Assembly: GCA_963754575.1 (NCBI GenBank)
Contig: CAVWGQ010000006.1
Location: 121,853-185,852, forward strand
Length of the DNA stretch: 64,000 bases
Direction: 5' to 3'
Source: an uncultured Actinomycetota bacterium
Lineage (GTDB): Bacteria; Actinomycetota; Actinomycetes; Propionibacteriales; Nocardioidaceae
The notes under the pieces were generated by a model that saw only the letters and a list, made by a program, of their open reading frames with translations, was not told where the DNA came from and ran no database searches. The translations under genes and the position numbers were made by a program. This document shows, one piece after another, positions 19,590 to 51,288 of this stretch (position 1 is its first letter; each line of letters starts with the position of its first letter).

Positions 19590-19623
19590 GCGGGGACAAC
19601 TTCCGCGGTGGTAGGCACGTCCC

Positions 19624-21321
19624 ATGGGCGTGAGAGCCGCGATCCCCCTGGTCCTGCTGGCCGTGCTCGTGACGGCCGGCCCCGCCCTGCCCATCGGCGA
19701 CCAGGTCGGCCCGGCAGCCGCGGTGCCGGCCGCAGCCGCGGCTGGTCCCGGGCCGGCGACGGCCGCGCGGAGGCCACCGAACGTTGTGGTGGTGATGGCC
19801 GACGACATGCGGGTCGACGACCTCCGCTTCGCACCGTCGCTACGACGGCTGGTGGCCCGCCAGGGGATCACGTTCGAGAACTCGTTCGCGCCGTACCCGC
19901 TGTGCTGCCCGGCCCGGGCGTCGTTCCTCACCGGGGTCCACGCCCACCGCCACCACGTCTGGTCGCACGACCCGCCCTGGGGCTACCAGCGCTTCGACGA
20001 CTCGCGCACGCTGGCGACCTCGCTGCGCCGCGCGGGTTACCGGACCGGCTTCGTGGGCAAGTACCTCAACGGCTACGGGCCGCAGGACTCGCTGGTTTCG
20101 GGGAAGCCCTCGTGGCGCTACGTCCCGCGCGGCTGGACCGACTGGCGCGCCGCGTTCGAGAACCCGGACGTGCCCGGCATCCACGGCGGGACCTACTACT
20201 ACTTCGACACGCCCTACAACGTGAACGGTCGGGTCGACAACCGCTACCGGGGCCGTTACCAGACGAACGTCGTGGGTGACTTCTCCCTCGACATGGCCCG
20301 CCGGTTCTCCCGGCACCGCGACCCGTTCTTCATGTACGTCAACTACGTGGCGCCCCATCACGGAGGGCCGGTCGAGCCGGACGACCCGGGCCCGATCCGG
20401 GACCGGCGGGGACACCGACGGCTGCTCATGACCCCGGCCGTCCCCGACTCGGTGAAGGGCCGCTTCGATGACGTCGTACGCCGGGGGGCGGGCCTGCCCC
20501 GCGGCGGCGGCCCGGCGGAGGCGAGCGTCCGCGACAAGCCCGGCCGGCTCGGCAAGCTCCCGGAGTTCCTGCCCCGCGAGCGGCGGGCGCTGCGGGAGGC
20601 GACCCGGCAGCGCGCCGAGGCGGTGCACGTCATGGACGGCCAGGTCCGGCGTCTCGTGACGACGCTCAAGCGGACCGGTGAGTGGCGGCGGACGGTCTTC
20701 GTCTTCACCTCCGACAACGGCTACCTGCTCGGGGAGCACCGGCTGCTGCAGGGCAAGATCTGGGGCCACGAGCCGTCGCTGCGGGTGCCGATGCTCGTCA
20801 CCGGTCCGGGGATGCGCGGCGGGGGCGAGGACGGGCACCGACGACAGGACCCGATCACCACCGTCGACCTCGCGGCGACCATCCTCGACGTCGCCGGGGC
20901 GCGGGCGCCGTACGACCCGGACGGCGTCAGCCGGCTGCCGACGCTGCTCGACGGCGACGTCGGCTGGACGACCCCCGTCCTCCACGAGGCACTGCACACC
21001 GGGGGGCGCAAGAGCGGCGACTTCGACGACGTCCGGACCGCGATCGGGATCCGGACCTCGCGCTACGTGATGCTGCGCTACCGCAACGGTGCGGAGCTCT
21101 ACGACCTCGCCGACGACGCGGTCCAGAACCGCAACCGCTGGCGCTCGCAGGCCTACCGCGACGTACGGCGTGACCTGCTGGAGGTCTGGGACGCGATGAA
21201 GGACTGCCGGGGCGAGGAGTGCCTGGTCGCGCTGCCGCCGTCGCTGTCGGCCGGCGTGGCGGAGAACCGGGCGCGGACCCGGTCCTACTGGCAGCAGGTA
21301 CGCCGGGTCTACGGCTGGTGA
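19624..21321 (+). CDS. Secreted sulfatase
   Basis: Signal peptide; PNVVVVMADD, CCPARASFLTG (CxPxR), GKYLN and FTSDNG motifs. Confidence 0.93.
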   Translation: MGVRAAIPLVLLAVLVTAGPALPIGDQVGPAAAVPAAAAAGPGPATAARRPPNVVVVMADDMRVDDLRFAPSLRRLVARQGITFENSFAPYPLCCPARASFLTGVHAHRHHVWSHDPPWGYQRFDDSRTLATSLRRAGYRTGFVGKYLNGYGPQDSLVSGKPSWRYVPRGWTDWRAAFENPDVPGIHGGTYYYFDTPYNVNGRVDNRYRGRYQTNVVGDFSLDMARRFSRHRDPFFMYVNYVAPHHGGPVEPDDPGPIRDRRGHRRLLMTPAVPDSVKGRFDDVVRRGAGLPRGGGPAEASVRDKPGRLGKLPEFLPRERRALREATRQRAEAVHVMDGQVRRLVTTLKRTGEWRRTVFVFTSDNGYLLGEHRLLQGKIWGHEPSLRVPMLVTGPGMRGGGEDGHRRQDPITTVDLAATILDVAGARAPYDPDGVSRLPTLLDGDVGWTTPVLHEALHTGGRKSGDFDDVRTAIGIRTSRYVMLRYRNGAELYDLADDAVQNRNRWRSQAYRDVRRDLLEVWDAMKDCRGEECLVALPPSLSAGVAENRARTRSYWQQVRRVYGW

Positions 21322-31690: not shown

Positions 31691-31725
31691 CCGGCCCACT
31701 GGGCGGTCACGGTTAGTCTCCTCCC

Positions 31726-32968
31726 ATGCGATCGTGGACCCCCCCGGACGTCCCCCGGCTGCCCGAGACCGGCCCGACGGTGAGGATCCACGACACCGCG
31801 ACCGGCAAGCCTGCCGACGTCACCCCGGTGACGGGTCCGGCCCGGATGTACGTCTGCGGGATCACGCCGTACGACGCCACCCACCTCGGGCACGCGGCCA
31901 CCTACCTCGGCTTCGACCTGCTCAACCGGGCCTGGCGCAATGCCGGCCACGAGGTGAGCTACGTGCAGAACGTCACCGACGTCGACGACCCCCTGCTCGA
32001 GCGAGCCGCCAAGGTCGGAGCCGACTGGGTCGAGCTGGCCGAGCGCGAGACCGAGCTGTTCCGTCAGGACATGACCGCGCTGCGCGTGCTCCCCCCCGAC
32101 CACTACGTCGGCGCCGTCGAGTCGATCCCGCTCGTCGTCGACCTCGTCCAGCGGCTCGACCGAGCTCGGCTCCGTCTACAGCGTCGACGACGACCTCTAC
32201 TTCTCGGTCTCGACCGACGACACCTTCGGTGAGATCTCGGGCTGGACCCGCGACCAGATGCTGGCGACCTTCGGCGACCGCGGGGGAGACCCCGAGCGGG
32301 CCGGCAAGAAGGACCCCCTCGACTGCGTCGTGTGGCGGGGCGAACGTCCCGACGAGCCGGCCTGGGACAGCCCGCTGGGACGCGGCCGCCCCGGCTGGCA
32401 CATCGAGTGCACCGCCATCGCCCTGGCCCACCTGGGCTCGGCCTTCGACGTGCAGGGTGGCGGCAGTGACCTGGTCTTCCCCCACCACGAGATGTGCGCG
32501 TCCGAGGCGCAGGTCGCCGACCCCGCCCACCGCTTCGCGCGCACCTACGCGCACGCCGGGATGGTCGGCTACGACGGCGAGAAGATGTCGAAGTCGAAGG
32601 GCAACCTGGTCTTCGTCAGCGCCCTGCGCAACAGCGACGTCGACCCGATGGCGATCCGGCTGGCGCTGCTGCGCCACCACTACCGCGCCGACTGGGAATG
32701 GACCGACGCCGAGCTCTGGGACGCCGTCGACACCCTCGCCGACTGGCGCCGTGCCCTCGCGCTGGGCGCCGGGGCACCGGCCGCGCCGGTGGTCACCTCG
32801 GTGCTCGCGGCCCTCGCCGACGACCTCGACGCCCCGACGGCCCTCGCCGCCGTGCAGCGCTGGGTCGACGCCACGCTCGGGACCGGGCGGCTCGCCGACG
32901 CGGGCGACGCGGACGCCGCCGCCACCGTCCACCAGCTGCTCGACGCCGCCCTCGGCCTCTCCCTCTGA
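31726..32968 (+). CDS. mshC: Cysteine:GlcN-Ins ligase (mycothiol synthesis), frameshift near 32161
   Basis: [33 protein letters not shown] and KMSKS motifs split across two frames by one extra base. Confidence 0.92.
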
Positions 32969-33015: not shown

Positions 33016-33076
33016 GCCGTTGGGGACCAATCGGCGGTGAAACCTGGGTCAAATCTGCCGTTGGTGACCAATCGGC
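33016..33076 (+). repeat. Paired 20-bp quasi-palindromic repeat, locus 1 (direct)
   Basis: GCCGTTGGGGACCAATCGGC (33016-33035) and GCCGTTGGTGACCAATCGGC (33057-33076), between convergent mshC and PAC2 genes. Confidence 0.95.
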
Positions 33077-33121
33077 ATGCCCCACGGCCGCCCGGGCCCG
33101 AGGCGACGCAGACCCGGTCGG

Positions 33122-33985
33122 TCAGGCCTCGTCGGGCCGGTTGCGCTTGAGGTAGCGCTCGAACTCCCGCGCGATCGCCTCGCCGGAGGCCTCGGGGAGG
33201 TCGGTGGTGTCCCGGGTCTCCTCGAGCGCGCGGACGTAGTCGGCCACGTCCTCGTCCTCCTCGGCCAGCTCGTCGACGCCGCGCTCCCAGGCGCGGGCCT
33301 CCTCGGGGAGGTCGTCAAGCGGGATGCTCGCCTCGAGGAGGTCCTCGAGCTGGCCCAGCAGCGCCAGCGTCGCCTTGGGGCACGGCGGCTGCGCGACGTA
33401 GTGGGGGACGGCCGCCCAGTAGGACACCGCCGGGATGTCGAGCTTGGTGCAGGCGTCCTGCAGCACGCCGACGATGCCGGTCGGTCCCTCGTACGTCGAC
33501 TGCTCCAGCTTGAGCCGGTCCACCAGGTCGGGCTCGGTGGCGGTGCCGGTGACCGGGATCGGCCGGGTGTGGGGGGTGTCGGCGAGCAGCGCCCCGAGGG
33601 TGACGACGAGCCGGCCACCGAGCTCGTCGCAGGCCGCGAGCACCTCTGCGGCGAACTGGCGCCAGCGCATGTTCGGCTCGATGCCGCGCACCAGGATCAC
33701 GTCGCGGTCGAGGTGGGGCGGGGAGGCGATCGCGATCTGGGTGGAGGGCCAGGTGAGCCGTCGGTGACCGAGCTCGTCGCTGCCGACGATCGGCCGGTTG
33801 ACCTGGAAGTCGTAGAAGTCCTCGGGATCGACCGCACCCACGACCCGGGCGTCCCATGCCCGCATCAGGTGGTCCAGCGCGGAGGAGGCGGCCTCGGCGG
33901 CGTCGTTCCACCCCTCGAACGCCGCGATCACGATGGGCTCGACCAGCCCGTCCACCAACCCGCCGGCGTCCTCGATCTCGATCAC
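33122..33985 (-). CDS. PAC2 family (proteasome assembly chaperone-like) protein
   Basis: AFEGWNDA, DPEDFYDFQVNRP, GIEPN..W, LADTPHTRP and WAAVPHY motifs. Confidence 0.9.
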   Translation of the reverse strand: MIEIEDAGGLVDGLVEPIVIAAFEGWNDAAEAASSALDHLMRAWDARVVGAVDPEDFYDFQVNRPIVGSDELGHRRLTWPSTQIAIASPPHLDRDVILVRGIEPNMRWRQFAAEVLAACDELGGRLVVTLGALLADTPHTRPIPVTGTATEPDLVDRLKLEQSTYEGPTGIVGVLQDACTKLDIPAVSYWAAVPHYVAQPPCPKATLALLGQLEDLLEASIPLDDLPEEARAWERGVDELAEEDEDVADYVRALEETRDTTDLPEASGEAIAREFERYLKRNRPDEA

Positions 33986-34155
33986 CCGGCCACCCTAGTC
34001 ACACACCGGTGCCCGCCCGGGTGAGGACCACGAGGATTTCGCCGGGCATCGGGGCGGGTGCCACGATGGTGAGCGGTGTCAGCATCCGGGAATGCCGTCC
34101 ACAGTGCGGACGCGCTGCCTAGGCTGGATGCCCACCTCGAGCCCGGAGGAGACCC

Positions 34156-37930
<3,775 letters not shown>

Positions 37931-37938
<8 letters not shown>

Positions 37939-38701
37939 CGTGTCGCGCGCTGGGGTTGACGCGTCGGAGGAGCGCCGATTGGTCCCCAACGGCAATGACA
38001 TGGCCCGGAGAACTGCCGTTGGTGACCAATCGGCAGCCCAGCGGGCCTGGCCGGCGGCGGTGCTCTGGGACATGGACGGCACGTTGGTGGACACCGAGCC
38101 GTACTGGATCGACACCGAGTTCGCACTGGCGGAGCGCTACGGCGCCAGCTGGTCGCAGGAGCACGCGCTCAACCTCGTCGGCCAGGACCTGCTCGAGTCG
38201 GGCCGCTACATCCGCGAGCACATGGGGATCGGCCTCGAGCCGGCGCAGATCGTCGAGGAGCTCCTCGACGGCGTGGTCGCGATGGTCGAGCGCGAGGTGC
38301 CGTGGCGACCGGGTGCCCGGGAGCTGCTGGCCGCGCTGGTCGACGAGGGCGTGCCGTGCGGGCTGGTCACGATGTCCTACGAGCGCTTCGTGGCACCGGT
38401 CCTCGCGGCCCTGCCCGAGGGTGCCTTCGAGGTGGTGGTGACCGGGGACGCGGTGAGCCACGGCAAGCCACACCCCGAGCCTTACCTCAAGGCGGCCCGC
38501 GAGCTGCGCCTGGAGCCGGCGGACTGCCTGGCGATCGAGGACTCCGACACCGGCACCCGCTCGGCGGTCGCGGCGGGGGCCACGGTCCTGGTAGTCCCGG
38601 CCCACGTCCCGGTGCTGGAGGGCGAACGGCGGGTCCTGCGGGACACGCTGGCCGGCCTCACGGTCGACGACCTGAGCGCCCTGCGAGCCGCAGGGTCGTG
38701 A
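37931..38701 (+). CDS. HAD family phosphatase (N-terminus apparently contains a repeat pair in frame)
   Basis: ATG overlaps the metH stop (ATGAGTGA); [15 protein letters not shown] and IEDS motifs. Confidence 0.85.
37974..38034. repeat. Paired 20-bp repeat, locus 2 (inverted)
   Basis: GCCGATTGGTCCCCAACGGC (37974-37993, reverse) and GCCGTTGGTGACCAATCGGC (38015-38034). Confidence 0.95.
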
Positions 38702-38716
38702 GGCGCGGGGTACGCC

Positions 38717-39604
38717 TCAGGCGAGGTCGTCGGCGGTGACGCTGCCGGGATCAGCCGGCTCGACCTCCGGCAACGGCGGGGGAGTGCCACCCCACGCGGG
38801 GCAGATGGCCTGGTGCGCGCACCAGTCGCACAGCCGGGAGCGGCGTGGCTGCCAGTCCCCGGTCTCGGTGGCGAGCTGGATCGCGCGCCAGATCGCCTCC
38901 ACCTTGCGCTCGGTGGCGAGCAGGTCCTGCTCGTCCGGGGCGTAGCGGACCAGCTCCCCGCTTCCGAGGTAGACCAGCTGCAGCATCGAGGGCACCACGC
39001 CACGGGTCCGCCAGAGGACGAGGGCGTAGAACTTCATCTGGAACAGCGCCTTCGCCTCCCAGCCGACCGCGGGAGCCTTGCCGCTCTTGTAGTCGACGAC
39101 CCGCATCGCCCCGTCGGGCGCCACGTCGAGCCGGTCGACGAAGCCGCGCAGCAAGAGCCGCGAGTCGAGCACCGCCTCGACGTACAGCTCCCGCTCCGCG
39201 GGCTCGAGCCGGCGCGGGTCCTCGAGCTGGAAGTAGCGGTCCAGGACCGTGCGGCACGAGGTCAACCAGCCGGCGACCTCCGGCCCCTCGCCGCCGAACA
39301 TCTCCGCGAGGGCGGGCTCGGCCTCGAGCAGGCCCTTCCACGAGGGCGCCAGCAGGTCGCGCGCCCGCTCGGGAGTGCGCTCGGCCGAGGGCAGGTCGAA
39401 GAGGTCCTCGAGCACCTTGTGCACCAGCGTTCCGCGCGCCGCGTCGGGGCTCGGGGGCTCCGGCAACCGGTCCACGATGCGGAAGCGGTAGAGCAGCGGG
39501 CAGGTGAGGAAGTCGCCGGCCCGACTCGGGGAGAGGGAGCCGAGCACCTCCACCCCGTCGACGGGCGTCGACAGCGGGAGAGCCGGCGAGTCGTCCACGG
39601 TCAT
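38717..39604 (-). CDS. RecB family exonuclease (PD-(D/E)xK)
   Basis: LSPSR..DF.TCPL.YRF, GFVDRLD and VVDYKSGK motifs. Confidence 0.9.
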   Translation of the reverse strand: MTVDDSPALPLSTPVDGVEVLGSLSPSRAGDFLTCPLLYRFRIVDRLPEPPSPDAARGTLVHKVLEDLFDLPSAERTPERARDLLAPSWKGLLEAEPALAEMFGGEGPEVAGWLTSCRTVLDRYFQLEDPRRLEPAERELYVEAVLDSRLLLRGFVDRLDVAPDGAMRVVDYKSGKAPAVGWEAKALFQMKFYALVLWRTRGVVPSMLQLVYLGSGELVRYAPDEQDLLATERKVEAIWRAIQLATETGDWQPRRSRLCDWCAHQAICPAWGGTPPPLPEVEPADPGSVTADDLA

Positions 39605-39677
39605 GGCGTCACCCTAGGTGGCTGGGCCGACAGCCGGCGTTGCCGGAGGTCGGGACCTGCTCGGATACCCTCGGCGC

Positions 39678-40853
39678 GTGTCCGACCCCGCTCCTGCCAG
39701 CCCTGACCCGCGGTCCGACGTGCCGCGGTCGCAGCGCCCGCGGGGGACCATCCGGCTCGGCACGCTCGTCGGCACCGACGTCCTGGTCACCACCTCGTGG
39801 TTCCTGGTCGCGGCCCTCATCGCGGTGGTGATGTCGCCTCGGGTCGAGGCGGTCGAGCCCGGCCTCGGTCCCTGGAAGTACGTCGCCGGGTTCCTCTTCG
39901 CCGTGGTGCTCTACCTCTCCGTGCTGCTGCACGAGATGTCCCACGCCCTGATGGCGACGCGCTACGGCTTCCGGGTCAGCTCGATCACGCTGCACTTCCT
40001 CGGTGGCATGACAGAGATCGAGGGCGAGGCCCGTCGGCCGCGCGAGGAGTTCATGATCGCCGTCGTGGGTCCGCTGACCTCCCTGGCCGTCGGGGTCGGA
40101 GCCGTCGGGTTGTGGTTCGTGACCCCGGACGGGCTGCTGCTCCTGGTGGTCGAGGGACTGGCCGGGGCGAACCTGCTCGTGGGCGTGCTCAACCTGGTCC
40201 CCGGGCTCCCACTCGACGGCGGACGGGTGCTGCGCGCCGCGGTCTGGAAGCTCACGGGCAGCCAGCACTCCGGCACGGTCGTCGCGGGCTGGGGCGGCCG
40301 GCTGACTGCGATCGCCGTGGCGTCGTACCCCCTGTGGCTGCAGGCGCTGTCCGGCTACCGGCCGGAGGTGCTCGACTACGCGTTGGCCTTCATCATCGCC
40401 CTCTTCCTGTGGACCGGTGCCAGTGCCTCGATCGCCAACGCGCGGCTGCGGCGCAAGCTGCCCGCGCTGGTCGCGCGCGACCTGGCCCGGCGGACCATCA
40501 CCGTCCCGGACGACCTCCCGCTGGCGGAGGCCGTACGCCGCGCGCAGGAGGCCCACGCCGGCAGCATCGTGACCGTGACCAGCTCCGGTCACCCGGTCGG
40601 GCTCGTCAACGAGGCCGCCGTCCTCGCGACCCCCCAGGAGCGCCGCCCCTGGGTCGCCGTCTCCACCGTCAGCCGCACCCTGGGCGACGGACTCAGCCTG
40701 CCCGCCACCCTCGTCGGAGAGGACCTCGTGATGGCCATCAGCCGCACCCCGGCACCGGAGTACCTCCTGCTGGAGCCCGACGGCGTGATCTACGGCGTGC
40801 TGACCACGGTCGACGTCGACCGCGCCTTCCGGGAGGTGGAGCGCCGTGGCTGA
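39678..40853 (+). CDS. Site-2 protease (M50) with CBS-like C-terminus
   Basis: LHEMSH and NLVPGLPLDGG motifs; multiple TM segments. Confidence 0.92.
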   Translation: MSDPAPASPDPRSDVPRSQRPRGTIRLGTLVGTDVLVTTSWFLVAALIAVVMSPRVEAVEPGLGPWKYVAGFLFAVVLYLSVLLHEMSHALMATRYGFRVSSITLHFLGGMTEIEGEARRPREEFMIAVVGPLTSLAVGVGAVGLWFVTPDGLLLLVVEGLAGANLLVGVLNLVPGLPLDGGRVLRAAVWKLTGSQHSGTVVAGWGGRLTAIAVASYPLWLQALSGYRPEVLDYALAFIIALFLWTGASASIANARLRRKLPALVARDLARRTITVPDDLPLAEAVRRAQEAHAGSIVTVTSSGHPVGLVNEAAVLATPQERRPWVAVSTVSRTLGDGLSLPATLVGEDLVMAISRTPAPEYLLLEPDGVIYGVLTTVDVDRAFREVERRG

Positions 40854-41808
40854 GGACGACACCCGGGACGCCCCCGACGTTCCTCTCGACGCGTGGTCCG
40901 GCGTCCACCGTGGACCTCTGCGCGAGGGCGAGTGGGTGCGCCTGGTCGACGCCAAGGGCCGGCGGCACAACATCTGCCTCGAGGCCGGCAAGCGGTTCTT
41001 CTCGAACCGCGGCCACCTCGAGCACGACGAGCTGATCGGGCGCGAGGAGGGCTTCAGCGTCACGTCGTCGGTCGGCGGGCAGTACCTCGTCTTCCGACCC
41101 TTGCTCTCCGAGTTCGTGGTCTCCATGCCGCGCGGCGCGGCCGTGGTCTACCCCAAGGACGCCGCGCAGATCGTGGCGATGGCCGACATCTTCCCGGGCG
41201 CCGACGTGGTCGAGGCCGGTGTGGGCTCCGGGGCGCTGACCTGCTCGCTGCTGCGTGCCGTCGGTCCCCACGGCCGGGTGACGTCGTACGAGCTGCGCGA
41301 GGAGTTCGCCGACGTCGCCCGGCGCAACGTCACCCAGTTCTTCGGCGGCGACCACCCGGCCTGGCAGCTGTCGCTCGGCGACCTGGCCGAGGAGCTGCCA
41401 CGATCCGGGGCGAAGGTGGACCGGATCATCCTCGACATGCTGGCCCCCTGGGACTGCGTCGACGCGGTGTCCGGCGCGCTGCGGCCGGGAGGGATCGTGT
41501 GCGGGTACGTCGCGACCACGACCCAGCTCTCGCGGTTCGTGGAGACCCTGCGCGCGCACGGCGGCTTCACCGAGCCGGCGGTCTGGGAGTCGCTGGTGCG
41601 GGACTGGCACGTCGAGGGCCTCGCCGTACGGCCGGGGCACAAGATGATCGGCCACACGGCGTTCCTCGTGACCTCGCGCCGGATGGCGCCGGGGGAGCGG
41701 GCGCCGTCGAAGAAGCGTCGACCTGCGCCGGGGGCCTACGGGCCCGACTACACCGGCCCGAGGCCCGCCGACCTGCCGGCGCTGCCCGAGGAGCCGGCCG
41801 GGTCCTGA
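40846..41808 (+). CDS. trmI: tRNA (adenine-58-N1)-methyltransferase
   Basis: MPRGAAVVYPKD, VEAGVGSG and LDMLAPW motifs; synteny with arc. Confidence 0.93.
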   Translation: MAEDDTRDAPDVPLDAWSGVHRGPLREGEWVRLVDAKGRRHNICLEAGKRFFSNRGHLEHDELIGREEGFSVTSSVGGQYLVFRPLLSEFVVSMPRGAAVVYPKDAAQIVAMADIFPGADVVEAGVGSGALTCSLLRAVGPHGRVTSYELREEFADVARRNVTQFFGGDHPAWQLSLGDLAEELPRSGAKVDRIILDMLAPWDCVDAVSGALRPGGIVCGYVATTTQLSRFVETLRAHGGFTEPAVWESLVRDWHVEGLAVRPGHKMIGHTAFLVTSRRMAPGERAPSKKRRPAPGAYGPDYTGPRPADLPALPEEPAGS

Positions 41809-41845
41809 GGGCGCCGCTCTCGCCGCTCGGGTGTCCGGTGAGGGT

Positions 41846-41906
41846 GCCGTTTGGTCACCAACGACACTTCGGTGGACCCCAGGGATGTCGATTGGTCACC
41901 AACGGC
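41846..41906 (-). repeat. Paired 20-bp repeat, locus 3 (both copies reverse)
   Basis: GCCGTTTGGTCACCAACGAC (41846-41865) and GTCGATTGGTCACCAACGGC (41887-41906), between trmI and arc. Confidence 0.92.
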
Positions 41907-42002
41907 GCACCCCGGGCCCCGGAAAATCCGATCCCGACAGGTGGTGTCTGGCCTCCGCCCGACCCACCACGCAGGTAGGGTCGAAATCGGGAGGTGACGC
42001 TG

Positions 42003-43760
42003 ATGTCGTCCACCGAAGGTCAGGCCCACGGCGAGCAGAACCGCACGCCCGAGGAGCTCGTGAGCCAGGTGCGCTTCCTCGAGGCGGAGGTCACCGACCT
42101 CCGACGCCGGTTGAGCGACGCACCCGGGCACTCGCGCTCCCTCGAGCTCCGGCTCGCCGACACCCAGCGGTCGCTCTCGGCCGTGACGTCGCAGAACGAC
42201 CGGTTGGCGCAGACGCTGCGCGAGGCGCGCGACCAGATCACCAAGCTCAAGGAGGAGGTCGACCGGCTGGCGCAGCCGCCTGCCGGCTTCGGCACCTTCC
42301 TGACCCGCAACGACGACGACTCGATCGATGTCTTCACCGGCGGTCGCAAGCTGCGCGTGAGTGCGAGCCCCAACGTCGACCTCGACACCCTGGTCCGCGG
42401 CCAGGAGGTCATGCTCAACGAGGCGCTCAACGTCGTCGCGGCCCTCGACTTCGAGCAGGTCGGCGAGGTCGTGATGTTCAAGGAGCTGCTCGCCGACGGC
42501 GACCGTGCCCTGGTGATCGCCAACGCCGACGAGGAGCGCGTCGTACGCCTGGCGGAGCCGTTGCGTGCCGAGACGCTGCGCGCCGGCGACTCTCTGCTGC
42601 TGGACTCGCGCGCCGGCTACGTCTACGAGCGGGTGCCGAAGTCGGAGGTCGAGGAGCTCGTCCTCGAGGAGGTGCCCGACATCGCCTACGACTCGATCGG
42701 CGGGCTCCGTGGGCAGATCGAGCAGATCCAGGACGCCGTCGAGCTGCCCTACCTCCACCCCGACCTGTTCCTCGAGCACCAGCTGAAGCCGCCCAAGGGC
42801 GTGCTGCTCTACGGGCCTCCGGGATGCGGCAAGACCCTGATCGCCAAGGCGGTGGCCAACTCCCTGGCCAAGAAGGTCGCCGCGAAGACCGGGCAGGAGG
42901 GGAAGTCCTACTTCCTCAACATCAAGGGCCCCGAGCTGCTGAACAAGTACGTCGGCGAGACCGAGCGGCACATCCGGCTGGTCTTCCAGCGGGCGCGTGA
43001 GAAGGCGAGCTACGGCACGCCGGTCATCGTGTTCTTCGACGAGATGGACTCGCTCTTCCGCACCCGCGGCTCGGGGGTCTCCTCCGACGTCGAGAACACG
43101 ATCGTGCCGCAGCTGCTGAGCGAGATCGACGGCGTCGAGGCGCTGGAGAACGTGCTCGTGATCGGCGCCTCCAACCGGCCCGACATGATCGACCCCGCCA
43201 TCCTGCGTCCCGGCCGGCTCGACGTGAAGATCAAGATCGAACGGCCCGACGCCGAGTCGGCCCGCGACATCTTCAGCAAGTACCTCACCGCCGACCTGCC
43301 GCTGCACCCCGACGACCTGGTGGAGTTCGGGAACGACACGGGGGCGACCACCGCGGGGATGATCCAGCGCACGGTCGAACGCATCTACACCGAGTCCGAG
43401 GAGAACCAGTTCCTCGAGGTCACCTACGCCAACGGCGACAAGGAGGTCCTGTACTTCAAGGACTTCAACTCCGGCGCCATGATCCAGAACATCGTCGACC
43501 GGGCGAAGAAGATGGCGATCAAGGACTACCTCGAGCTCCACCAGAAGGGGATCTCGGTGCGCCACCTGATGCAGGCCTGCGTGGACGAGTTCAAGGAGAA
43601 CGAGGACCTCCCCAACACCACCAACCCCGACGACTGGGCCCAGATCGCCGGCAAGAAGGGCGAGCGGATCGTGTTCATCCGCACGCTCATCACCGGCAAG
43701 CAGGGCACGGAGCCGGGTCGCTCCATCGACACCGTGTCCAGCACCGGCCAGTACCTCTGA
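42003..43760 (+). CDS. arc: Proteasome ATPase ARC/Mpa
   Basis: N-terminal coiled coil, GPPGCGKT Walker A, VFFDEMD Walker B, C-terminal GQYL. Confidence 0.97.
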
Positions 43761-43762
43761 CG

Positions 43763-44140
43763 ATGGCGTCGGGGGACGGGTCGATCGAGCGCAACGAGGT
43801 CGAGGCAGTGCTGGAGACGCGGCGCGAGCTGGGGCAGTCGTACGACGCGGCGCTGGTGGAGTCCTTCGCCGAGCGGGTCGAGGCCGCGGTGGCCGCGCGG
43901 GTCGCCGCCGAGACGGTTCAGCGGCAGAGAGGTGACCGGGACCGGGCGTCGGCTGGTCCCCGCCAGCTCGCGCTCGGCATCGTGTCCGCCGGAACCGGGA
44001 CCGGGATGACGGCGATCTGTCTGGGGACCACCCAAGGTGGCGTGACCGGACTCTTCGCGATGGCCGTCGGCTGGGCGGGCCTGGTGGGCATCAACCTCGC
44101 CCACTCCCGTCAGGGGCTCGGCCGCGCCGACAGCAGGTAG
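43763..44140 (+). CDS. Conserved actinobacterial membrane protein
   Basis: RRELG..YDAALVESF.ERV N-terminus and two C-terminal hydrophobic helices. Confidence 0.7.
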   Translation: MASGDGSIERNEVEAVLETRRELGQSYDAALVESFAERVEAAVAARVAAETVQRQRGDRDRASAGPRQLALGIVSAGTGTGMTAICLGTTQGGVTGLFAMAVGWAGLVGINLAHSRQGLGRADSR

Positions 44141-44736
44141 CCGTAGGCCCACGGGCGACCGATCGTCGGCCCCTCGAGGTAGGACGTCTCGAGGTGCGTC
44201 ACCTCGAACCCGGCGCCCGTCACGAGCGCCTCGACGTCACGAGTCAGGTGGCAGCCCCCGGCGACCCGCCGCTGGAGCGGGTCGAGCCGGTGCTGCCAGC
44301 GGGCCACACCGGGCTCGGGCGAGAGCCCGTGCTCGAGGACGCACAGGACGCCGTCCGCGCGCAGCACGCGGCGTACCTCGGACAGCGCGAGGACCGGGTC
44401 GGGGATGGTGCACAGGGTGAAGGTCAGCAGCACCGCGTCGTACGCCGCGTCCGGCTCGTCGAGCCGCTGCCCGTCGAGGCCGCGCCGCTCGATCGGTACG
44501 GCCGTCCTCGCCCGCCGCCGCTCCGAGAGCCGCCAACCGACGTCGGAGGGCTCGACCGCGGCCACCGAGGCCACGGCGGGCGGGTACCACCGCACGTTGA
44601 GACCGCTGCCGAAGCCGATCTCGAGGACCTGTCCGCGTAGCGGCGTACAGGCCTGGCGACGCAGCTCGCCGATCTCGGGGCTGCGCAACGCCCGATCGGC
44701 CATCCGGGGCACCACGCGGTCCGTCCACACACCCAT
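44110..44736 (-). CDS. Class I SAM-dependent methyltransferase
   Basis: VLEIGFGSG and FTLCTIPDP..LEHG motifs. Confidence 0.9.
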   Translation of the reverse strand: MGVWTDRVVPRMADRALRSPEIGELRRQACTPLRGQVLEIGFGSGLNVRWYPPAVASVAAVEPSDVGWRLSERRRARTAVPIERRGLDGQRLDEPDAAYDAVLLTFTLCTIPDPVLALSEVRRVLRADGVLCVLEHGLSPEPGVARWQHRLDPLQRRVAGGCHLTRDVEALVTGAGFEVTHLETSYLEGPTIGRPWAYGYLLSARPSP

Positions 44737-44806
44737 GGGGGTGAGACTAGGGCGCGTCGGCCCGGACGGCCCGTGATCGCGCCGTGCGGACTGTAGGGTC
44801 CGCCGC

Positions 44807-44884
44807 ATGCTGAAGATCGTTCTCATCGTGGCCGTCGTCGTCGTGGTCCTCCTGTTCGTGATGCCCAAGCTGCGCAAGCGCTGA
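44807..44884 (+). CDS. Small single-TM protein (25 aa, MLKIVLIVAVVVVVLLFVMPKLRKR), not in the ORF track
   Basis: TAGGGT -10 box (44794-44799) 7 nt before ATG; hydrophobic helix with basic tail; directly upstream of dop. Confidence 0.6.
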   Translation: MLKIVLIVAVVVVVLLFVMPKLRKR

Positions 44885-44914
44885 GTCGATCGACCGGCCG
44901 CGTAGGCTCGGAGC

Positions 44915-46424
44915 ATGAGCGTGCGGCGGGTCATGGGCACCGAGGTCGAGTACGGCATCTCCGTCCCGGGTCAGCCGTTGGCCAACCCGATGGTGGCGTC
45001 GTCGCAGGTGGTCAACGCCTACGCCTCGGCCACCGTCCGGGCGCGACGTGCCCGGTGGGACTTCGAGGAGGAGTCGCCGCTGCGTGACGCGCGCGGCTTC
45101 GACATGTCGCGCCAGGTGGCCGACCCCACCCAGCTGACCGACGAGGACCTCGGGCTGGCGAACGTCATCCTCACCAACGGCGCCCGGCTCTACGTCGACC
45201 ACGCCCACCCGGAGTACGCCACGCCCGAGGTGACCTCGCCGCTCGACATCGTGCGCTGGGACAAGGCAGGGGAGCAGGTGATGCTCGACGCCGCGCGACT
45301 GGCCGGCCAGCTGCCGGGCGGCACGCCGATCAACCTCTACAAGAACAACACCGACAACAAGGGGGCGTCGTACGGCGCCCACGAGAACTACCTGATGCGT
45401 CGACGTACTCCCTTCGGCGACATCGTGCGACACCTCACGCCGTTCTTCGTCTCCCGGCAGGTGGTGTGCGGCGCCGGTCGGGTCGGCATGGGCCAGGACG
45501 GGCGCAGCCACGGCTACCAGGTGAGCCAGCGCGCCGACTTCTTCGAGGTCGAGGTGGGACTGGAGACGACGCTCAAGCGTCCGATCATCAACACCCGCGA
45601 CGAGCCGCACGCCGATCCCGAGAAGTACCGCAGGCTGCACGTGATCATCGGCGACGCCAACCTCGCCGAGGTCTCGACGTACCTCAAGGTCGGGACCACG
45701 GCCCTGGTGCTCGCCATGATCGAGGACCGCTACATCGACCGCGACCTGACCGTCGAGGGGTCGGTCGCCGCGCTGCGGGCGGTCTCGCACGACCCGACGC
45801 TCAAGCAGCTGATCCGGTTGACCGACGGCCGCACGCTCACGGCCGTGCAGCTCCAGCTGGAGTACCTCGACCTCGCGAAGAAGTACGTCGAGGACCGACT
45901 CGGCAGCGACGCCGACCCGCAGACCGTGGACGTCCTCGCCCGCTGGGAGTCGGTCCTCGACCGGCTCGAACGCGACCCGATGCTGTGCGCGCGCGAGCTC
46001 GACTGGGTGGCCAAGCTCGAGCTGCTCGAGCACTACCGTCAGCGCGACGGGCTCGGCTGGGACGACGCCAAGATGCAGCTGATCGACTACCAGTACTCCG
46101 ACATCCGGCCCGAGAAGGGGCTCTACCACCGCCTCGCTCCGCCTCGGCCGGATCGAGCGGCTGCTCGACGACGTCTCCGTCGAGGCGGCCATGCACGACC
46201 CGCCCGTCGACACCCGGGCCTACTTCCGCGGTCGCTGTCTCGAGAAGTACGCCGAGCACGTCGCGGCCGCCTCGTGGGACTCGGTGATCTTCGACCTCCC
46301 CGGGCGCGACTCGCTGCAGCGGATCCCGACCATCGACCCGCTGCGCGGCACCCGCGCCAGCGTCGGCGACCTGCTCGACCGGTGTGACACCGCCGAGGCG
46401 CTCTTCGCCGCGCTCACCCGCTGA
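44915..46424 (+). CDS. dop: Depupylase/deamidase Dop, frameshift near 46135
   Basis: [23 protein letters not shown] and RDEPHAD motifs; C-terminus TRAYFRG..AASWDS in a shifted frame. Confidence 0.95.
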
Positions 46425-46454
46425 CTCTCGCCCCTCGGACGTCCGGGATTGGAC

Positions 46455-46515
46455 GCCGATTGGTCCCCAACGGCAGCGACACGCCGGGTCGACCTGCCGT
46501 TGGTGACCAATCGGC
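46455..46515. repeat. Paired 20-bp repeat, locus 4 (inverted)
   Basis: GCCGATTGGTCCCCAACGGC (46455-46474, reverse) and GCCGTTGGTGACCAATCGGC (46496-46515), between dop and pup. Confidence 0.95.
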
Positions 46516-46558
46516 AACGGTGCGCCCCCGGCGTGGTCCGCGGCGCTAGGGTCGTGAC

Positions 46559-46756
46559 ATGGCACAGGAGCAGAAGCAACCGCGGAAGTCGTCGGAGACC
46601 GACGAGGCTCCCGAGGCGACCATCGAGACCGACGTCTCCGAGCGCAAGGGGGCCCTCGACGACGACGTCGACGCGATCCTCGACGAGATCGACGACGTGC
46701 TCGAGAGCAACGCGGAGGACTTCGTGAAGTCCTTCATCCAGAAGGGCGGCCAGTGA
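46559..46756 (+). CDS. pup: Prokaryotic ubiquitin-like protein Pup (GGQ terminus)
   Basis: [23 protein letters not shown]. Confidence 0.97.
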
Positions 46757-47602
46757 CCGACCCGCGTCTCCCCGCGTCCTTCCTGCGGTCCGGCAGCTCC
46801 TCTTTCAGCGACTTCCTGGCCGAAGCCGCTCCCGACCTGCTGCCGAGCCGCCGTGCAGTTCCCCAGGGGCAGGCGGGTGACCTCGCCCCGCACGCGACCA
46901 CGATCGTCGCGGCCACCTTCCCCGGTGGGGTCGTGATGGCCGGTGACCGCCGGGCCACGATGGGTAGCGTCATCGCCCAGCGCGACATCGAGAAGGTATT
47001 CCCCGCCGACGAGTTCTCCTGTGTCGGGATCGCGGGCACCGCCGGCCTCGCGGTCGAGATGGTGCGGCTCTTCCAGACCGAGCTCGAGCACTACGAGAAG
47101 ATCGAGGGCACCACGCTCTCCATGGACGGCAAGGCCAACCGGCTCGCGGCGCTGATCCGGGCCAACCTCGGGATGGCGATGCAGGGGCTGGCCGTCGTGC
47201 CTCTCTTCGCCGGCTACGACCTGACCCGCGATCAGGGCCGGATCTTCAGCTACGACGTGACCGGCGGCCGCTACGAGGAGACCGCCTTCCACTCGGTCGG
47301 CTCGGGCTCGCTGTTCGCCCGCGGCTCGCTGAAGAAGCTCTACCGGGAGAACCTCTCCGAGGAGGAGGCCGTCACGGTGGTGGTGCAGGCGCTGTACGAC
47401 GCTGCCGACGACGACTCCGCCACCGGCGGACCGGACCTGACCCGCCGGATCTTCCCCGTCGTCCAGATCGTGACGGGCCGAGGGCGGGCACCGGATGCCC
47501 GACGGTGACGTGGCGGACGTCGCCGACCGGATGATCGCGGGCCGGATGCAGCGACCCGACGGTCCCGCGTCCGCGACCCTGACCGGAGGTGACGTCCGAT
47601 GA
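46753..47602 (+). CDS. prcB: 20S proteasome beta subunit, frameshift near 47476
   Basis: Propeptide then HATTIVA; AGDRRAT, GSGS and [10 protein letters not shown] motifs; the restored frame ends overlapping the prcA start. Confidence 0.95.
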
Positions 47603-48505
47603 GCATGCCCTTCTACGTCTCGCCCGAGCAGGTCATGAAGGACCGCGCCGACTTCGCCCGGAAGGGCATCGCGCGTGGCCGCTCAGTGGTGGCCGTCCAG
47701 TACGCCGACGGCATCCTGTTCGCCTCCGAGAACCCCTCGCAGGCCCTGCACAAGGTCTCTGAGATCTACGACCGCATCGCGTTCGCCGCCGTCGGTCGCT
47801 ACAACGAGTTCGAGAACCTGCGGATCGCCGGCGTACGGCTGGCGGACATGCGTGGCTATGCCTACGACCGCAGCGACGTGACCGGCCGCGGCCTGGCCAA
47901 CGCCTACGCCCAGACGCTGGGGACCATCTTCTCCAGCGGTGGCGAGAAGCCCTACGAGGTCGAGATCTTCGTGGGCGAGGTGGGCGAGGTCGCCTCCGAC
48001 GACCAGATCTACCGGCTCACCTACGACGGTCAGGTCGCCGACGTCCACGGGTACGCCGTGATGGGCGGGGCGGTCGACACCGTCGCGGGCTTCCTCGAGT
48101 CCCGCTACGAGGCAGGGTCTGTCCTTCGACGCCGCGCTCCACCTGGCAGTCGCTGCACTCGGGCACACCGACAGCAGCGACCGGGTGATCCCGGACGGGG
48201 CCCTCGAGGTGGCGGTGCTCGATCGCAACCGCGCCCAGCCGCGCAAGTTCCGGCGCATCCGACCGGAGTCCCTCGCGCAGGTGCTGGGCGATCGTGAGCC
48301 GGCGCCGGAAGAGCCGGCCGGAGGTGCCTCGACCGTGCCCGCGACGGACGACCCGTCCGACCCGACCGACCAGGTGAGCGGTGGAGTTCCTCCGTTGGAG
48401 CACCCCCTGACCGGCGAACCCGGGACACCTCGCCCCAGCGACCCCGTCGCCCCACCGCCTCCGCCCGTCGCGCCTCCGGTCGATCCCGACGACCCGATCG
48501 CCTGA
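47599..48505 (+). CDS. prcA: 20S proteasome alpha subunit, frameshift near 48117
   Basis: [26 protein letters not shown]; LEVAVLDR...RKFRRI in a shifted frame. Confidence 0.95.
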
Positions 48506-48551
48506 CGTAGCTCAGGGCAGGCCGCGGTCTACTCCGGCAACCCGCTGGGTT

Positions 48552-48612
48552 GCCGTTGGGGACCAATCGGCGTTCAGGCGGGCGATGGCGTTGTCGTTGG
48601 TGACCAATCGGC
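48552..48612 (+). repeat. Paired 20-bp repeat, locus 5 (direct), upstream flank of the nuclease-like gene
   Basis: GCCGTTGGGGACCAATCGGC (48552-48571) and GTCGTTGGTGACCAATCGGC (48593-48612). Confidence 0.95.
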
Positions 48613-48678
48613 GTCGAGGTTCTCCACAGATTGCTCCGGCGAGCCCTCACGAGGCGCCGGACCTTGGATCGTGGCGTC

Positions 48679-49663
48679 ATGCATCTCGACGACGGGCCAC
48701 CGATCCGCGGCCACATCAGGCTGGCGGGCTACCGGCGCGTGTCGCACGGGCTCTTCCTGCCGTCGAAGGAGGGGAGCGACGAACTCACCGAGCGCGAGTG
48801 GCGTCGGGACCTGGGCGCCTGGCTGCTCGTCCTTCCCCGCGGGGCGAGGTTCACCCACGTCACGGGTGCGCAACTGAAGAAGTGGAAGCTGCCCGCGCTG
48901 CCCGACCACCTTCCGGCGTTCGCCGTGGTGGGGCGCAACGATCCCCGCCCTCGGCGCAACGGGTTGGTCTGCTCGCGACTCGAGGTGGCAGCGCCTGGGA
49001 CCTTCGTCGACGGACTGCCCGTCGACGCCTCCGAGGAGATCCTGCTGCGCGCTGCCCGGGACCTGGGGCTGCTCGACCTACTCGTCCTGGTGGACTCGGC
49101 CCGCAGGATGGGTGACGTGGACTGCTGAGCGCATGCAGGCGGTCCTCGACAGTCGTCGCCCCGGCGTACGCCTGCTGCGTCGTGCGTGGCTGCTGTCGAG
49201 CGATCGTGCGGACTCGCCGGGCGAGACCTTGTTGCGTCTCTTCGACGTCACCATGGACGTCGAGGTGAAGCCCCAGGCGACGCTCTACGACGAGGCCGGC
49301 AACCTGGTCGGCGAGGCCGACCTGTGGGTTGTCGGGACCGATCTGATCCACGAGTACGACGGGGCGCACCACCGCGAGAAGGGACAGCAGCGGACGGATC
49401 TCCGGCGGGGTCGGGGCCTCGCCCAGACGTCGTACGACAGGCGCGGGTTCACCCTCGACGACCTGCTGAACCATGCCGCCGTGCTCATGCACGAGCTCGA
49501 CCGGGATCTTGGGCGTCGCCACGACCTACGGCGACTTCGTCGATGGCGGGTGCTGGTGGAGCAGTCGATGTACTCCGACGCGGGCCTGCGGCGGATCCGC
49601 AACCGGTGGCAGCGCCAGATGGGGGTCGCCGAGTGGTCGCGAACGGCACCCCGTGAGGCGTGA
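48679..49663 (+). CDS. AbiEi-like/DUF559 (Vsr-like PD-(D/E)xK) putative endonuclease; frameshift near 49120
   Basis: N-terminal part RVSHGLF..F.HVT.A.L..W.LP; C-terminal part DSPGETLLRL..PQ..ADL..HEYDG.HH..D.RR..L, typical of Vsr/DUF559-like folds (recognised from memory). Confidence 0.7.
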
Positions 49664-49688
49664 TTGTCGCCGTTGGGGACCAATCGGC
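49628..49688. repeat. Paired 20-bp repeat, locus 6 (inverted), overlapping the 3' end of the nuclease-like gene
   Basis: GCCGAGTGGTCGCGAACGGC (49628-49647; 17/20 match to the reverse consensus, inside the CDS) and GCCGTTGGGGACCAATCGGC (49669-49688). Confidence 0.9.
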
Positions 49689-49746
49689 GAGTGCCCAGCC
49701 GCCGGATGTCCGGGGCAAGCGCCCGGCACCGGCCTAGGGTGGTGAC

Positions 49747-51108
49747 GTGGACCGGCGGATCTTCGGTATCGAGAACGAGTACGGCGTCACGTGCACGTTC
49801 CGCGGGCAGCGGCGGCTGAGCCCCGACGAGGTCGCGCGCTACCTGTTCCGCAAGGTCGTCAGCTGGGGTCGGAGCAGCAACGTGTTCCTGCGCAACGGAG
49901 CCCGCCTCTACCTCGACGTGGGCAGCCACCCGGAGTACGCGACACCCGAGTGCGACGACATCGCCGAGCTGGTCGCCCACGACAAGGCGGGGGAGCGGGT
50001 CCTCGAGGGGCTGCTCCTCGACGCCGAGCAGCGGCTGCACGACGAGGGCATCGCGGGCGACATCTACCTGTTCAAGAACAACACCGACTCCGCCGGCAAC
50101 TCCTACGGCTGCCACGAGAACTACCTCGTCGGCCGCGCCGGCGAGTTCAGCAAGCTGGCCGACGTACTCATCCCGTTCCTGGTGACCCGCCAGATCATCG
50201 TGGGAGCCGGCAAGGTCACCCAGACGCCCCGCGGTGCCAGCTTCAGCGTCTCCCAGCGGGCCGAACACATCTGGGAAGGGGTCAGCAGCGCCACCACTCG
50301 CAGCCGACCGATCATCAACACCCGTGACGAGCCGCACGCCGACGCGGAGCGGTACCGCCGGCTGCACGTGATCGTCGGGGACTCCAACATGAGCGAGACC
50401 ACGACCCTGCTCAAGGTCGCCAGCTGTGACCTCGTGCTGAGGATGATCGAGGAGGGCGTGGTGATGCGCGACCTCACGATGGAGAACCCGATCCGCGCGA
50501 TCCGCGAGATCTCCCACGACGTGACCGGCCGCCGCAAGATCCGCCTGGCCAACGGTCGCGAGGCCAGCGCGCTGGACATCCAGATGGAGTACTTCTCCAA
50601 GGCACGCGACTTCGTGGACCGCCGTGAGCTGCGTACGCCGGTGATCGACCGCGCCCTCGACCTCTGGGAGCGCACCCTGAAGGCCGTCGAGTCCGACGAC
50701 CTCGACCTCGTGGACCGCGAGATCGACTGGGTCATCAAGTGGAAGCTGATCGAGCGGTACCGCGCCAAGCACGGGCTGCCGATGGGCCACCCGCGCATCG
50801 CGCAGCTCGACCTCGCCTACCACGACATCCACCGCGGCCGAGGGCTCTACTACCTGCTGGAGAAGCGCGGCGCCGTCGCCAGGGTGACGACGGACCTCAA
50901 GATCTTCGAGGCGAAGTCGGTCCCGCCCCAGACGACCCGCGCCCGGCTTCGTGGCGAGTTCATCCGCAAGGCCCAGGAGCGCCGGCGGGACTTCACGGTC
51001 GACTGGGTGCACCTCAAGCTCAACGACCAGGCGCAGCGGACGGTCCTGTGCAAGGACCCGTTCCGCGCCCATGACGAGCGGGTCCAGCGGCTCATCGACG
51101 GCATGTGA
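49747..51108 (+). CDS. pafA: Pup-protein ligase
   Basis: [29 protein letters not shown] and CKDPF motifs. Confidence 0.97.
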
Positions 51109-51133
51109 GCCGTCCTCCGGCGTCCCGGACGTT

Positions 51134-51194
51134 GCCGTTGGGGACCAATCGGCGAGGAAATCACTGGTCCGACTGTCGTTGGTGACCAATCGGC
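51134..51194 (+). repeat. Paired 20-bp repeat, locus 7 (direct)
   Basis: GCCGTTGGGGACCAATCGGC (51134-51153) and GTCGTTGGTGACCAATCGGC (51175-51194), between pafA and fkbp. Confidence 0.95.
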
Positions 51195-51288
51195 GACCAC
51201 CCCGGGAGCCCTCTCAGGTTCCTCTTGCCCGCCCGGGCTAGGGTGAGCGGCGCTGTCTCGACACCGCCCATGAACGTGATCAACGAAG

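Follow-up and report, generated by a model that had tools for sequence, protein, structure and literature searches.

A REPIN-like module of paired palindromes flanking an AbiEi/Vsr-like gene in the Pup-proteasome locus of a Nocardioidaceae bacterium

Repetitive extragenic palindromic (REP) sequences and their hairpin-forming doublets (REPINs) have been described mainly in Proteobacteria, and to our knowledge these repeats are tied to one enzyme class, the Y1 transposases termed REP-associated tyrosine transposases (RAYTs). The 64-kb stretch of DNA analysed here (contig CAVWGQ010000006.1 of assembly GCA_963754575.1, an uncultured Nocardioidaceae bacterium; 'the window', with positions counted from its first base) contains seven pairs of a short palindrome in and around its Pup-proteasome genes. 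Two of these pairs bracket a single open reading frame (ORF), the product of which is predicted to join an AbiEi-type winged helix to a nuclease domain of the Vsr/DUF559 kind. An earlier note on this DNA, made from the sequence alone, had named REP elements and bacterial interspersed mosaic elements (BIMEs) as the analogue; the general likeness stands, while the closest described architecture is that of the REPIN. We tentatively favour the reading that the pairs form a REPIN-like module that belongs to this gene and is probably recognised by its protein, and that the gene-less copies would have been seeded locally and kept uniform.

A REPIN consists of two imperfect palindromes that are inverted relative to each other; its ends are conserved, whereas the spacer is fixed in length and not in sequence (Bertels and Rainey, 2011; PMC3116915, PMC3337134). 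The module described here resembles the REPIN-RAYT system in its inverted, extragenic doublets, which could form a long hairpin as single-stranded DNA or RNA and which also occur in higher-order tandem clusters. Further likenesses are a single-copy associated gene flanked by the repeats, mostly vertical inheritance and genome-specific sequence populations. However, the flanked gene is predicted to encode a PD-(D/E)xK protein of Vsr/DUF559 type with an AbiEi winged helix-turn-helix (wHTH) instead of a Y1/HUH transposase, about 5-15 copies were detected compared with tens to hundreds, and roughly half of them lie within ~35 kb of the gene. In addition, the modules lack a conserved GTAG-type head and their host is an actinobacterium.

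The second relevant system is that of AbiEi and Rv2827c, which bind as monomers to pairs of 23-bp inverted repeats that are 3 or 13 bp apart; a larger C-terminal domain has been suggested to go with wider repeat spacing in the AbiEi family (PMC7319586). These monomers on inverted-repeat pairs would also provide the precedent for a proposal of the earlier note, namely that one assembly contacts both arms of a pair (PMC7319586). Like these proteins, the one studied here has an N-terminal winged helix, with Rv2827c as its best structural match, and a pair of repeats lies 5' of its own gene, as do the repeats bound by AbiEi-family monomers. Unlike in AbiEi systems, no AbiEii/DUF1814 toxin gene is adjacent, the neighbours being prcA upstream and pafA downstream, and the C-terminal domain, in which acidic and His residues are conserved, is predicted to fold like a Vsr-type nuclease. 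Moreover, the spacing is 40-41 bp start to start instead of 26 or 36 bp, and there are also repeats 3' of the gene, as well as where unrelated genes end.

The C-terminal fold itself is shared with Vsr/DUF559/EDxHD endonucleases (I-Bth0305I, NGO0050, R2) and has precedent among nucleases of mobile elements. In contrast to these, our protein has no Pfam DUF559 match and lies outside any intron or intein, and dispersed palindromic doublets are not described for those families. As short, non-autonomous, palindromic intergenic units the modules finally resemble miniature inverted-repeat transposable elements (MITEs), Correia elements, enterobacterial repetitive intergenic consensus (ERIC) sequences and BIMEs. 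In the sites compared and the blocks retrieved, neither the target-site duplication of a MITE nor an insertion sequence (IS) with matching ends was found, and two separately conserved arms at a fixed distance take the place of a uniformly conserved element. MITEs and similar small repeats are often co-transcribed and affect the 3' ends of mRNAs. A search of the available literature returned no description of the present repeat-nuclease combination, no paper on REPINs or RAYTs in Actinobacteria and none tying DUF559 to repeats.

Anatomy and geometry of the module

The window, which has a G+C content of 71.7%, was searched with the motif G[CT]CGTTGG[GT]GACCAATCGGC at up to 3 mismatches. This search recovered all 14 arms of 20 bp that the earlier note had listed, in the same seven pairs (Table 1), while 0.05 matches are expected by chance and none of 100 shuffles contained more than one. 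The claim that arms are absent from the first 33 kb and after 51.2 kb holds at this threshold, since no further arm was found in the 64 kb; at 4 mismatches there is a single unpaired match at 60365, which is probably due to chance. In 7/7 pairs the start-to-start distance of the arms is 41 bp, corresponding to a module of 61 bp, and the arms are oriented (-,+) in three pairs, (+,+) in three and (-,-) in one. Each arm reads GCCG-(A)-TTGG-NNN-CCAA-CGGC, an imperfect short palindrome in which a single base is bulged. The spacers of 21 nt had been described as different in every pair. Indeed, orthologous spacers cannot be aligned, in contrast to the near-invariant arms; however, they are not random, as 68 pairs from relatives yield a weakly palindromic consensus, AGatttCCGG.CCGGaaatCT, with self-complementarity at 0.52 of positions compared with 0.40 ± 0.02 in shuffles. 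The positions next to the arms are constrained as well (Y 5' of the first arm, R 3' of the second, then a C-rich run), and the module extends at least 1 nt beyond the arms on either side. With its palindromic spacer and constrained flanks, the whole unit amounts to a long palindrome that measures 62-74 bp.

Folding predictions for the modules gave long hairpins of -33 to -50 kcal/mol, with z-scores of -4 to -6 for inverted pairs. Strong hairpins directly behind stop codons, as found here, are what one would expect if the pairs were sequence-independent intrinsic terminators or other hairpins that are alike by chance or base composition. However, two of the three (+,+) pairs fold like shuffled sequence (z = -1.7) and yet keep perfect arms, and near-identical 20-mers recur at unlinked sites and across species against the 0.05 expected. 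There is also no U-tract (the flank reads RNCCCC), and a promoter and terminator scan around the ORF found none. We consider this explanation highly improbable, and an effect of chance or composition as such was rejected on the shuffles together with the conservation across species. A CRISPR array was rejected as well: such arrays are built of direct repeats that are 23 nt or longer, each spacer being unique, and cas genes often accompany them, whereas the present repeats are 20 nt long and mostly in inverted pairs, the spacers within arrays are alike and the region holds no cas gene. An Rfam search of 32-52.5 kb gave no meaningful match and no family for the module, and a scan of viral contigs with the motif gave 0 matches.

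Beyond the window, 185,579 species genomes were scanned with GYCGTTGGKGACCAATCGRC, resulting in 59 blocks of 8 kb. Blocks were retrieved only where an exact arm was present, and genome-wide copy counts are lower bounds for that reason. While 11 of the 59 blocks are non-actinobacterial and carry one lone arm each, which is consistent with chance, the arms are almost always paired in Nocardioides (N. aestuarii, N. hankookensis, N. ungokensis), Marmoricola and several soil Actinomycetota metagenome-assembled genomes (MAGs). The range of the family is a Nocardioides/Marmoricola clade, with ~5 to 15 pairs detected per genome as a lower bound. Among 69 pairs, the start-to-start distance is 41 bp in 39 and 40 bp in 27 (66/69 at 40 or 41 bp), and 59 have inverted arms. 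The fixed 41-bp geometry proposed for the window is thus correct there, but elsewhere it is 40 or 41 bp depending on the genome: 40 bp in N. aestuarii (14/15) and CAWGVI (6/7), 41 bp in CAVQLE (8/9) and CAWCGW (11/12). Arm variants are likewise specific to each genome, and in the variant GCGG...CCGC of strain KIGAM211 the outer stem is preserved by change on both sides.

Two blocks show higher-order arrangements. Five direct arms with a 41-bp period stand at the trmI/arc junction of Nocardioides sp. KIGAM211 (L060, 2747-2930), and three whole pairs with a 139-bp period occur in a MAG (L028, 2231-2569). No public sequence run contained >28% of the words of the window, and none of RNA was found.

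The bracketed gene and its association with the repeats

In relatives the ORF is intact (316-339 aa) and occupies the same position between prcA and pafA. The window copy, however, carries one additional base near 49118, which breaks it into two parts, 48679-49128 and 49112-49663. Compared with continuous orthologues, mshC (31717-32968), the HAD-like gene (38070-38710), dop (44906-46424) and prcA (47593-48505) are equally frame-broken, which makes it unsafe to regard the window ORF as a pseudogene. Since five genes are broken within 20 kb, the break in the ORF may be an assembly error, and the five breaks suggest indel errors of a long-read assembly rather than true pseudogenes.

Sequence comparison alone left the protein without assignment: neither Pfam and NCBIfam (intact orthologue, E up to 10) nor the PADLOC models (ORF orthologue) nor a PDB sequence-profile search with the ORF protein gave a match. 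An AlphaFold2 (AF2) model built from 43 homologues reached a mean predicted local distance difference test (pLDDT) of 88.7 and a predicted template modelling (pTM) score of 0.86. Its best Foldseek match in the PDB is Rv2827c, the AbiEi antitoxin of M. tuberculosis (1zel; E 4.5e-4, probability 1.0). For the C-terminal domain, matches were obtained to the catalytic domain of I-Bth0305I (3r3p), NGO0050 (DUF559, 3hrl), Vsr (1vsr) and the R2 restriction-like endonuclease, with a probability of 0.94-0.99 for 3r3p and 3hrl. On the basis of this model, the protein appears to consist of an N-terminal AbiEi-type winged helix and a C-terminal Vsr/DUF559-like PD-(D/E)xK nuclease domain, which agrees with the nuclease-like character suggested earlier and adds the winged helix to it. 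The C-terminal domain carries the motif D...(E/D)xDG..H. Residues D216, D229 and H233 are invariant in both alignments, of orthologues and of paralogues, while E227 is invariant in the 43 orthologues and E or D in the paralogues; by analogy, these three residues and position 227 are the putative active site. Distant homologues match Pfam DUF559 and REase_MTES_1575 near the cut-off (P0299 with 21.8 bits against a cut-off of 20.6), and the paralogue P0401 matches the PADLOC AbiEi model (E 3.5e-4). The protein belongs to a large family that comprises 4,256 clusters (50% identity, E up to 1e-3). In four metagenome runs from soil, rock and biocrust, contig depth over the ORF (window 48250-49477, at least 88% likeness) is 30- to 100-fold below that of the flanking prcA and pafA, which fits a fast-evolving gene or its presence in part of the population.

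Gene and repeats go together. The repeats flank the gene in 10/10 genomes that carry it at the prcA-pafA position, and the upstream pair (position P5) is present in all 10. Downstream (P6), the second arm is kept in 9/10 and absent in N. aestuarii, and several of the 10 have the downstream pair reduced to this second arm. KIGAM211, L061 and L078, which are among the 10, carry variant arms (GCGGTTTGGTCACCAACCGC and others) in which the outer stem is changed on both sides. In contrast, three relatives without the gene (N. cavernaquae, N. luteus, Marmoricola URHA0025) contain no copy of the motif in 21 kb; in two of them prcA abuts pafA, and unrelated genes lie in between in N. luteus. The association between gene and motif that had been proposed is borne out at this locus. 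The idea that the repeats are connected with the replication terminus or with chromosome organisation was set aside; the ORF-less relatives lack copies in the same locus. In five genomes, about half of the detected pairs fall between -34 and +2.5 kb from the gene. Together, pair, GTCCACAG box, gene and pair make up a cassette of ~1.25 kb.

Gene-less relatives have unrelated short repeats near the locus, with a 21-bp-period CGCCGAGACGTCAGAA in N. luteus and a GAGCCTGTCGAA-type repeat in Marmoricola (19580-19627 and 20173 in L064; 20628-20822 and 3018-3112 in L065).

At four other loci, paralogues of the gene are accompanied by different arms of their own, spaced 37-41 bp; in L066 and L067 these stand on both sides of the gene, and an upstream pair is present in 3/5 paralogous loci (Table 1). 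The co-variation of nuclease clade and motif that the earlier note had in view is seen in these paralogues, which combine different arms with similar spacing. The upstream pair of L066 lies in a divergent promoter region and therefore belongs to the gene and not to the 3' end of a neighbour. Beside the paralogue in L067, six arms of different sequence stand at ~40-bp periods (9657-9877). Tandem arrays instead of an inverted pair were seen 3' of two paralogues, with ~37-bp units in L076 (6990-7240) and ~15-bp units in L077 (7000-7080). A metagenome scan with the arm of the Soil805 paralogue gave 7 single matches, 6 on contigs of 59-65% G+C and one on a 1.2-kb contig of 77% G+C, all of them probably due to chance.

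Whatever the arm type, a GTCCACAG-type box lies 5' of all family members inspected except L077, where the boxes are variant. A (C/T)TGTCCACAG-type box was seen, between start codon and upstream pair, at 48621-48629 in the window, at ~9930-9985 in L061 and at ~9905-9950 in L066 and L067, and in three loci two such boxes are ~30 bp apart. It resembles the core of the actinobacterial DnaA box, TTGTCCACA, and could be the real operator or promoter element of the family.

The REPIN-like architecture also invites another explanation, in which classical REPIN or MITE repeats are moved by an unseen transposase (RAYT or IS). The gene would then be incidental, or a mobile gene that lands at palindromes which are its targets and not its progeny. 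The architecture matches that of REPINs point by point (PMC3116915). In L066 the gene stands between two near-identical copies of the element, as after insertion into or beside an existing one, and no paralogue of the gene was found near any dispersed copy. That IS elements target REPs is general knowledge. However, no transposase-like ORF recurs beside the pairs in ~35 non-syntenic blocks, a RAYT elsewhere in the genomes not having been searched for. Furthermore, ORF-less relatives lack pairs in the locus, a pair without the gene was never seen at prcA-pafA, copies cluster around the gene in five genomes and independent paralogues have different arms with the same geometry. We regard this explanation as unlikely and retain the assignment of the module to the bracketed gene.

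Table 1. Palindrome pairs, box and bracketed gene in the window, and repeats beside paralogues of the gene in other genomes
Feature	Position in window	Arm starts	Strand or arm orientation	Setting	Predicted hairpin or distance
P1	33016..33076	33016/33057	(+,+)	between convergent 3' ends: mshC stop 32968, PAC2 stop 33122	-45.4 kcal/mol
P2	37974..38034	37974/38015	(-,+)	35 nt past metH stop 37938, ahead of frame-broken HAD-like gene	-44.9 kcal/mol
P3	41846..41906	41846/41887	(-,-)	between trmI stop 41808 and arc start 41994	
P4	46455..46515	46455/46496	(-,+)	30 nt past true dop stop 46424; ends 43 nt 5' of pup start 46559	-50.1 kcal/mol
P5	48552..48612	48552/48593	(+,+)	46 nt past true prcA stop 48505; ends 66 nt 5' of ORF start	
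TCTCCACAG box	48621..48629		+	between P5 and ORF start	
ORF (AbiEi-like winged helix, then Vsr/DUF559-like PD-(D/E)xK nuclease, predicted)	48679..49663		+		
P6	49628..49688	49628/49669	(-,+)	first arm with 3 mismatches, encodes last residues of ORF; second ends 58 nt 5' of pafA start 49747	
P7	51134..51194	51134/51175	(+,+)	25 nt past pafA stop 51108; ends 94 nt 5' of FKBP start 51289	
N. okcheonensis (L066)				same 75-100-nt palindromic element flanks gene on both sides	40 bp start to start
Soil805 (L067)				AACTGGCGGCGTACGACGG arrays on both sides	40-bp period
Leaf374 (L076)				two pairs upstream	measured one 38 bp start to start
N. solisilvae (L068)				one pair, downstream only	37 bp
L077				no pair of such geometry	

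Placement and turnover at gene junctions

Across genomes, the pairs sit 5-80 nt past stop codons; in the window they begin 25-47 nt past the preceding stop codon, with the exception of P6, the first arm of which lies within the final codons of the ORF. No copy intrudes further into a gene than its last codons, and the others are extragenic. Among the 54 pairs with called genes on both sides, 18 stand at convergent and 36 at tandem junctions, and none is divergent, while 27/151 intergenic regions of at least 70 bp in the same loci are divergent. The probability of 0/54 is ~2e-5 by junction count and 0.004 by intergenic length. Outside the proteasome region the neighbours are unrelated housekeeping genes such as katG, sufS, an ABC-F ATPase gene, a uvrA-like gene, ppa and thiL. 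This placement fits an element that is tolerated behind stop codons.

TAGGGT -10-like boxes (TAGGCT in relatives) were observed at ~46540-46550, 49730-49740 and 51240-51250. They lie directly 5' of pup and pafA and ~40 nt 5' of the FKBP gene, are kept in relatives and are always 3' of a repeat pair, which suggests an own promoter for each unit of the locus.

One might think of the pairs as ordinary promoter operators of a transcription factor that controls a pup-proteasome regulon. Several pairs do lie 5' of arc, pup, pafA and the FKBP gene, and we take the arm core TTGGTSACCAA to resemble GntR-type half-sites. However, the distance to the -10-like box varies (31, 46, 44 nt) and relatives lack pairs at the same promoters. 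As 0/54 pairs are divergent and 18 stand between convergent gene ends, ordinary promoter operators are excluded in our view, and we give this explanation next to no credence.

Syntenic regions of six related genomes with 80-87% DNA identity were compared junction by junction. At the 27592/28614 junction there are 0 pairs in the window and L010, 1 in N. aestuarii and 2 in L008. The orfX/methyltransferase junction is filled in 2/5 genomes (N. aestuarii and a Marmoricola MAG) and empty in 3, and the dop/pup junction carries a pair in four genomes and is empty in L052 and in N. hankookensis L016. In contrast, 5/5 genomes compared have a pair at the mshC/PAC2 junction, with two pairs in L055. At trmI/arc, N. 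aestuarii shares the rare (-,-) orientation, while L060 has 5 arms and L061 has 3; the (+,+) orientation of P7 is kept in N. aestuarii and L052. Metagenome contigs over the region are a mixture of relatives and yielded one useful empty site: in a relative, 37939-38049, that is P2 with its flanks, is replaced by 15 nt.

The REP-like behaviour postulated in the earlier note is thereby supported, as the pairs are dispersed, extragenic, placed at gene 3' ends, variable in presence and copy number at orthologous junctions and represented by genome-specific variants. Its idea that the orphan pairs are progeny of the gene-bearing element fares less well: empty and variable junctions do exist, but many of the pairs, rare orientations included, recur at identical junctions in different species, so that much of the family is vertically inherited and not recent progeny. 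Since orientation is conserved but spacing is genome-specific, the spacing appears to have been changed in place or overwritten. Judged from these sequences, such in-place change points to a trans-acting factor with genome-specific geometry.

The same pattern could be explained by an autoregulated AbiEi-like binder that has its true operators in the pairs around its own gene and for which the dispersed pairs are host-selected, vertically inherited and immobile sites, acting as protein-dependent terminators, roadblocks or insulators. Here, the arms are near-invariant while the spacers are saturated with change, the conserved orientation with genome-dependent spacing suggests co-evolution with a trans-acting factor, the operator pairs of AbiEi and Rv2827c provide a precedent, and copies stand between an upstream stop codon and a downstream TAGGGT -10-like box. 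Nevertheless, close relatives vary at the same junctions (0, 1 or 2 pairs; 3 or 5 arms) and the neighbours serve a variety of functions (among them katG, sufS, uvrA-like, ppa and thiL). In addition, a pure binder would have no need of the putative catalytic residues that the nuclease domain conserves. We therefore hold selected, immobile sites to be quite unlikely and return to a module that is seeded from its gene.

Proposed mechanism, points against it and the surrounding locus

If the module is recognised by the AbiEi-wHTH/Vsr-like protein, two protomers might each occupy one arm, some four helical turns from each other on the same face of the DNA, in the way AbiEi and Rv2827c do on inverted-repeat pairs. 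At its own gene, the upstream pair would then be an autoregulatory site and the downstream pair a 3' boundary mark. If bound modules were nicked or cleaved and then copied in the course of repair, extra gene-less modules could arise and be kept uniform within a genome. We infer that new modules would persist where they do no harm, namely a short way past stop codons and for the most part up to ~35 kb 5' of the gene. Transcribed modules should fold with the energies given above, and a further role, as terminators or stabilisers of 3' ends between the units of the pup-proteasome locus, is probable.

Several observations weigh against this proposal. The ORF copy in the window is itself frame-broken. 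The rare (+,+) and (-,-) orientations are conserved at orthologous junctions; the copies concerned are therefore old and vertically inherited, not recently copied. A comparison of filled and empty sites shows no target-site duplication, with exact boundaries undefinable because the flanks are too diverged. With ~5-15 detected pairs per genome, the copies are few compared with the tens to hundreds of classical REPINs, and no paralogues of the gene were seen near dispersed copies. The retrieval of 8-kb blocks around exact arms leaves room for a RAYT or IS partner elsewhere in the genome. PafA identity to the window is 92.05-96.7% in the genomes with gene and repeats and 88.5-91.8% in the three without; the former are thus one clade by this measure, and gene and repeats may have come together at the proteasome locus only once. 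Among the paralogues, L077 lacks any pair of this geometry, while in L068 there is one downstream only. Finally, the GTCCACAG box is conserved across clades with differing arms and could be the site of the winged helix in place of the arms.

A wider claim is possible but doubtful, namely that we are dealing with an undescribed repeat-enzyme class in which an AbiEi-type/Vsr-DUF559 protein recognises clade-specific inverted arms ~40 bp apart and copies or maintains gene-less doublets nearby. This would be a non-HUH analogue of the REPIN-RAYT system in Actinomycetota. If true, it could explain the abundance of DUF559/AbiEi-like genes in actinobacteria, suggest, for a very large family of uncharacterised proteins, a function that can be tested and provide a natural protein-DNA pair with programmable, clade-specific 20-bp arms. 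If confirmed, the partnership of repeat and enzyme would be new, and resident replicators would have evolved more than once with different chemistry. On a conservative reading, the modules punctuate every pup-proteasome transcription unit in the clade and likely shape the expression of the locus.

The surroundings are those of an actinobacterial pup-proteasome neighbourhood. With minus-strand genes marked (-), the order in the window is mshC, P1, PAC2 (-), metH, P2, a HAD-like gene, a RecB-like nuclease gene (-), an M50 gene, trmI, P3 and arc. It continues from arc with orfX, a methyltransferase gene (-), dop, P4, pup, prcB, prcA, P5, the ORF, P6, pafA, P7, the FKBP gene, pafB and pafC. An exact look-up of the Pup protein of the window returned no record. 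Apart from this region, an ORF of 845 aa was found at 2280-4814, with shadow ORFs on the opposite strand that recur every 240 nt (3539-4219), which suggests that its product has internal tandem repeats.

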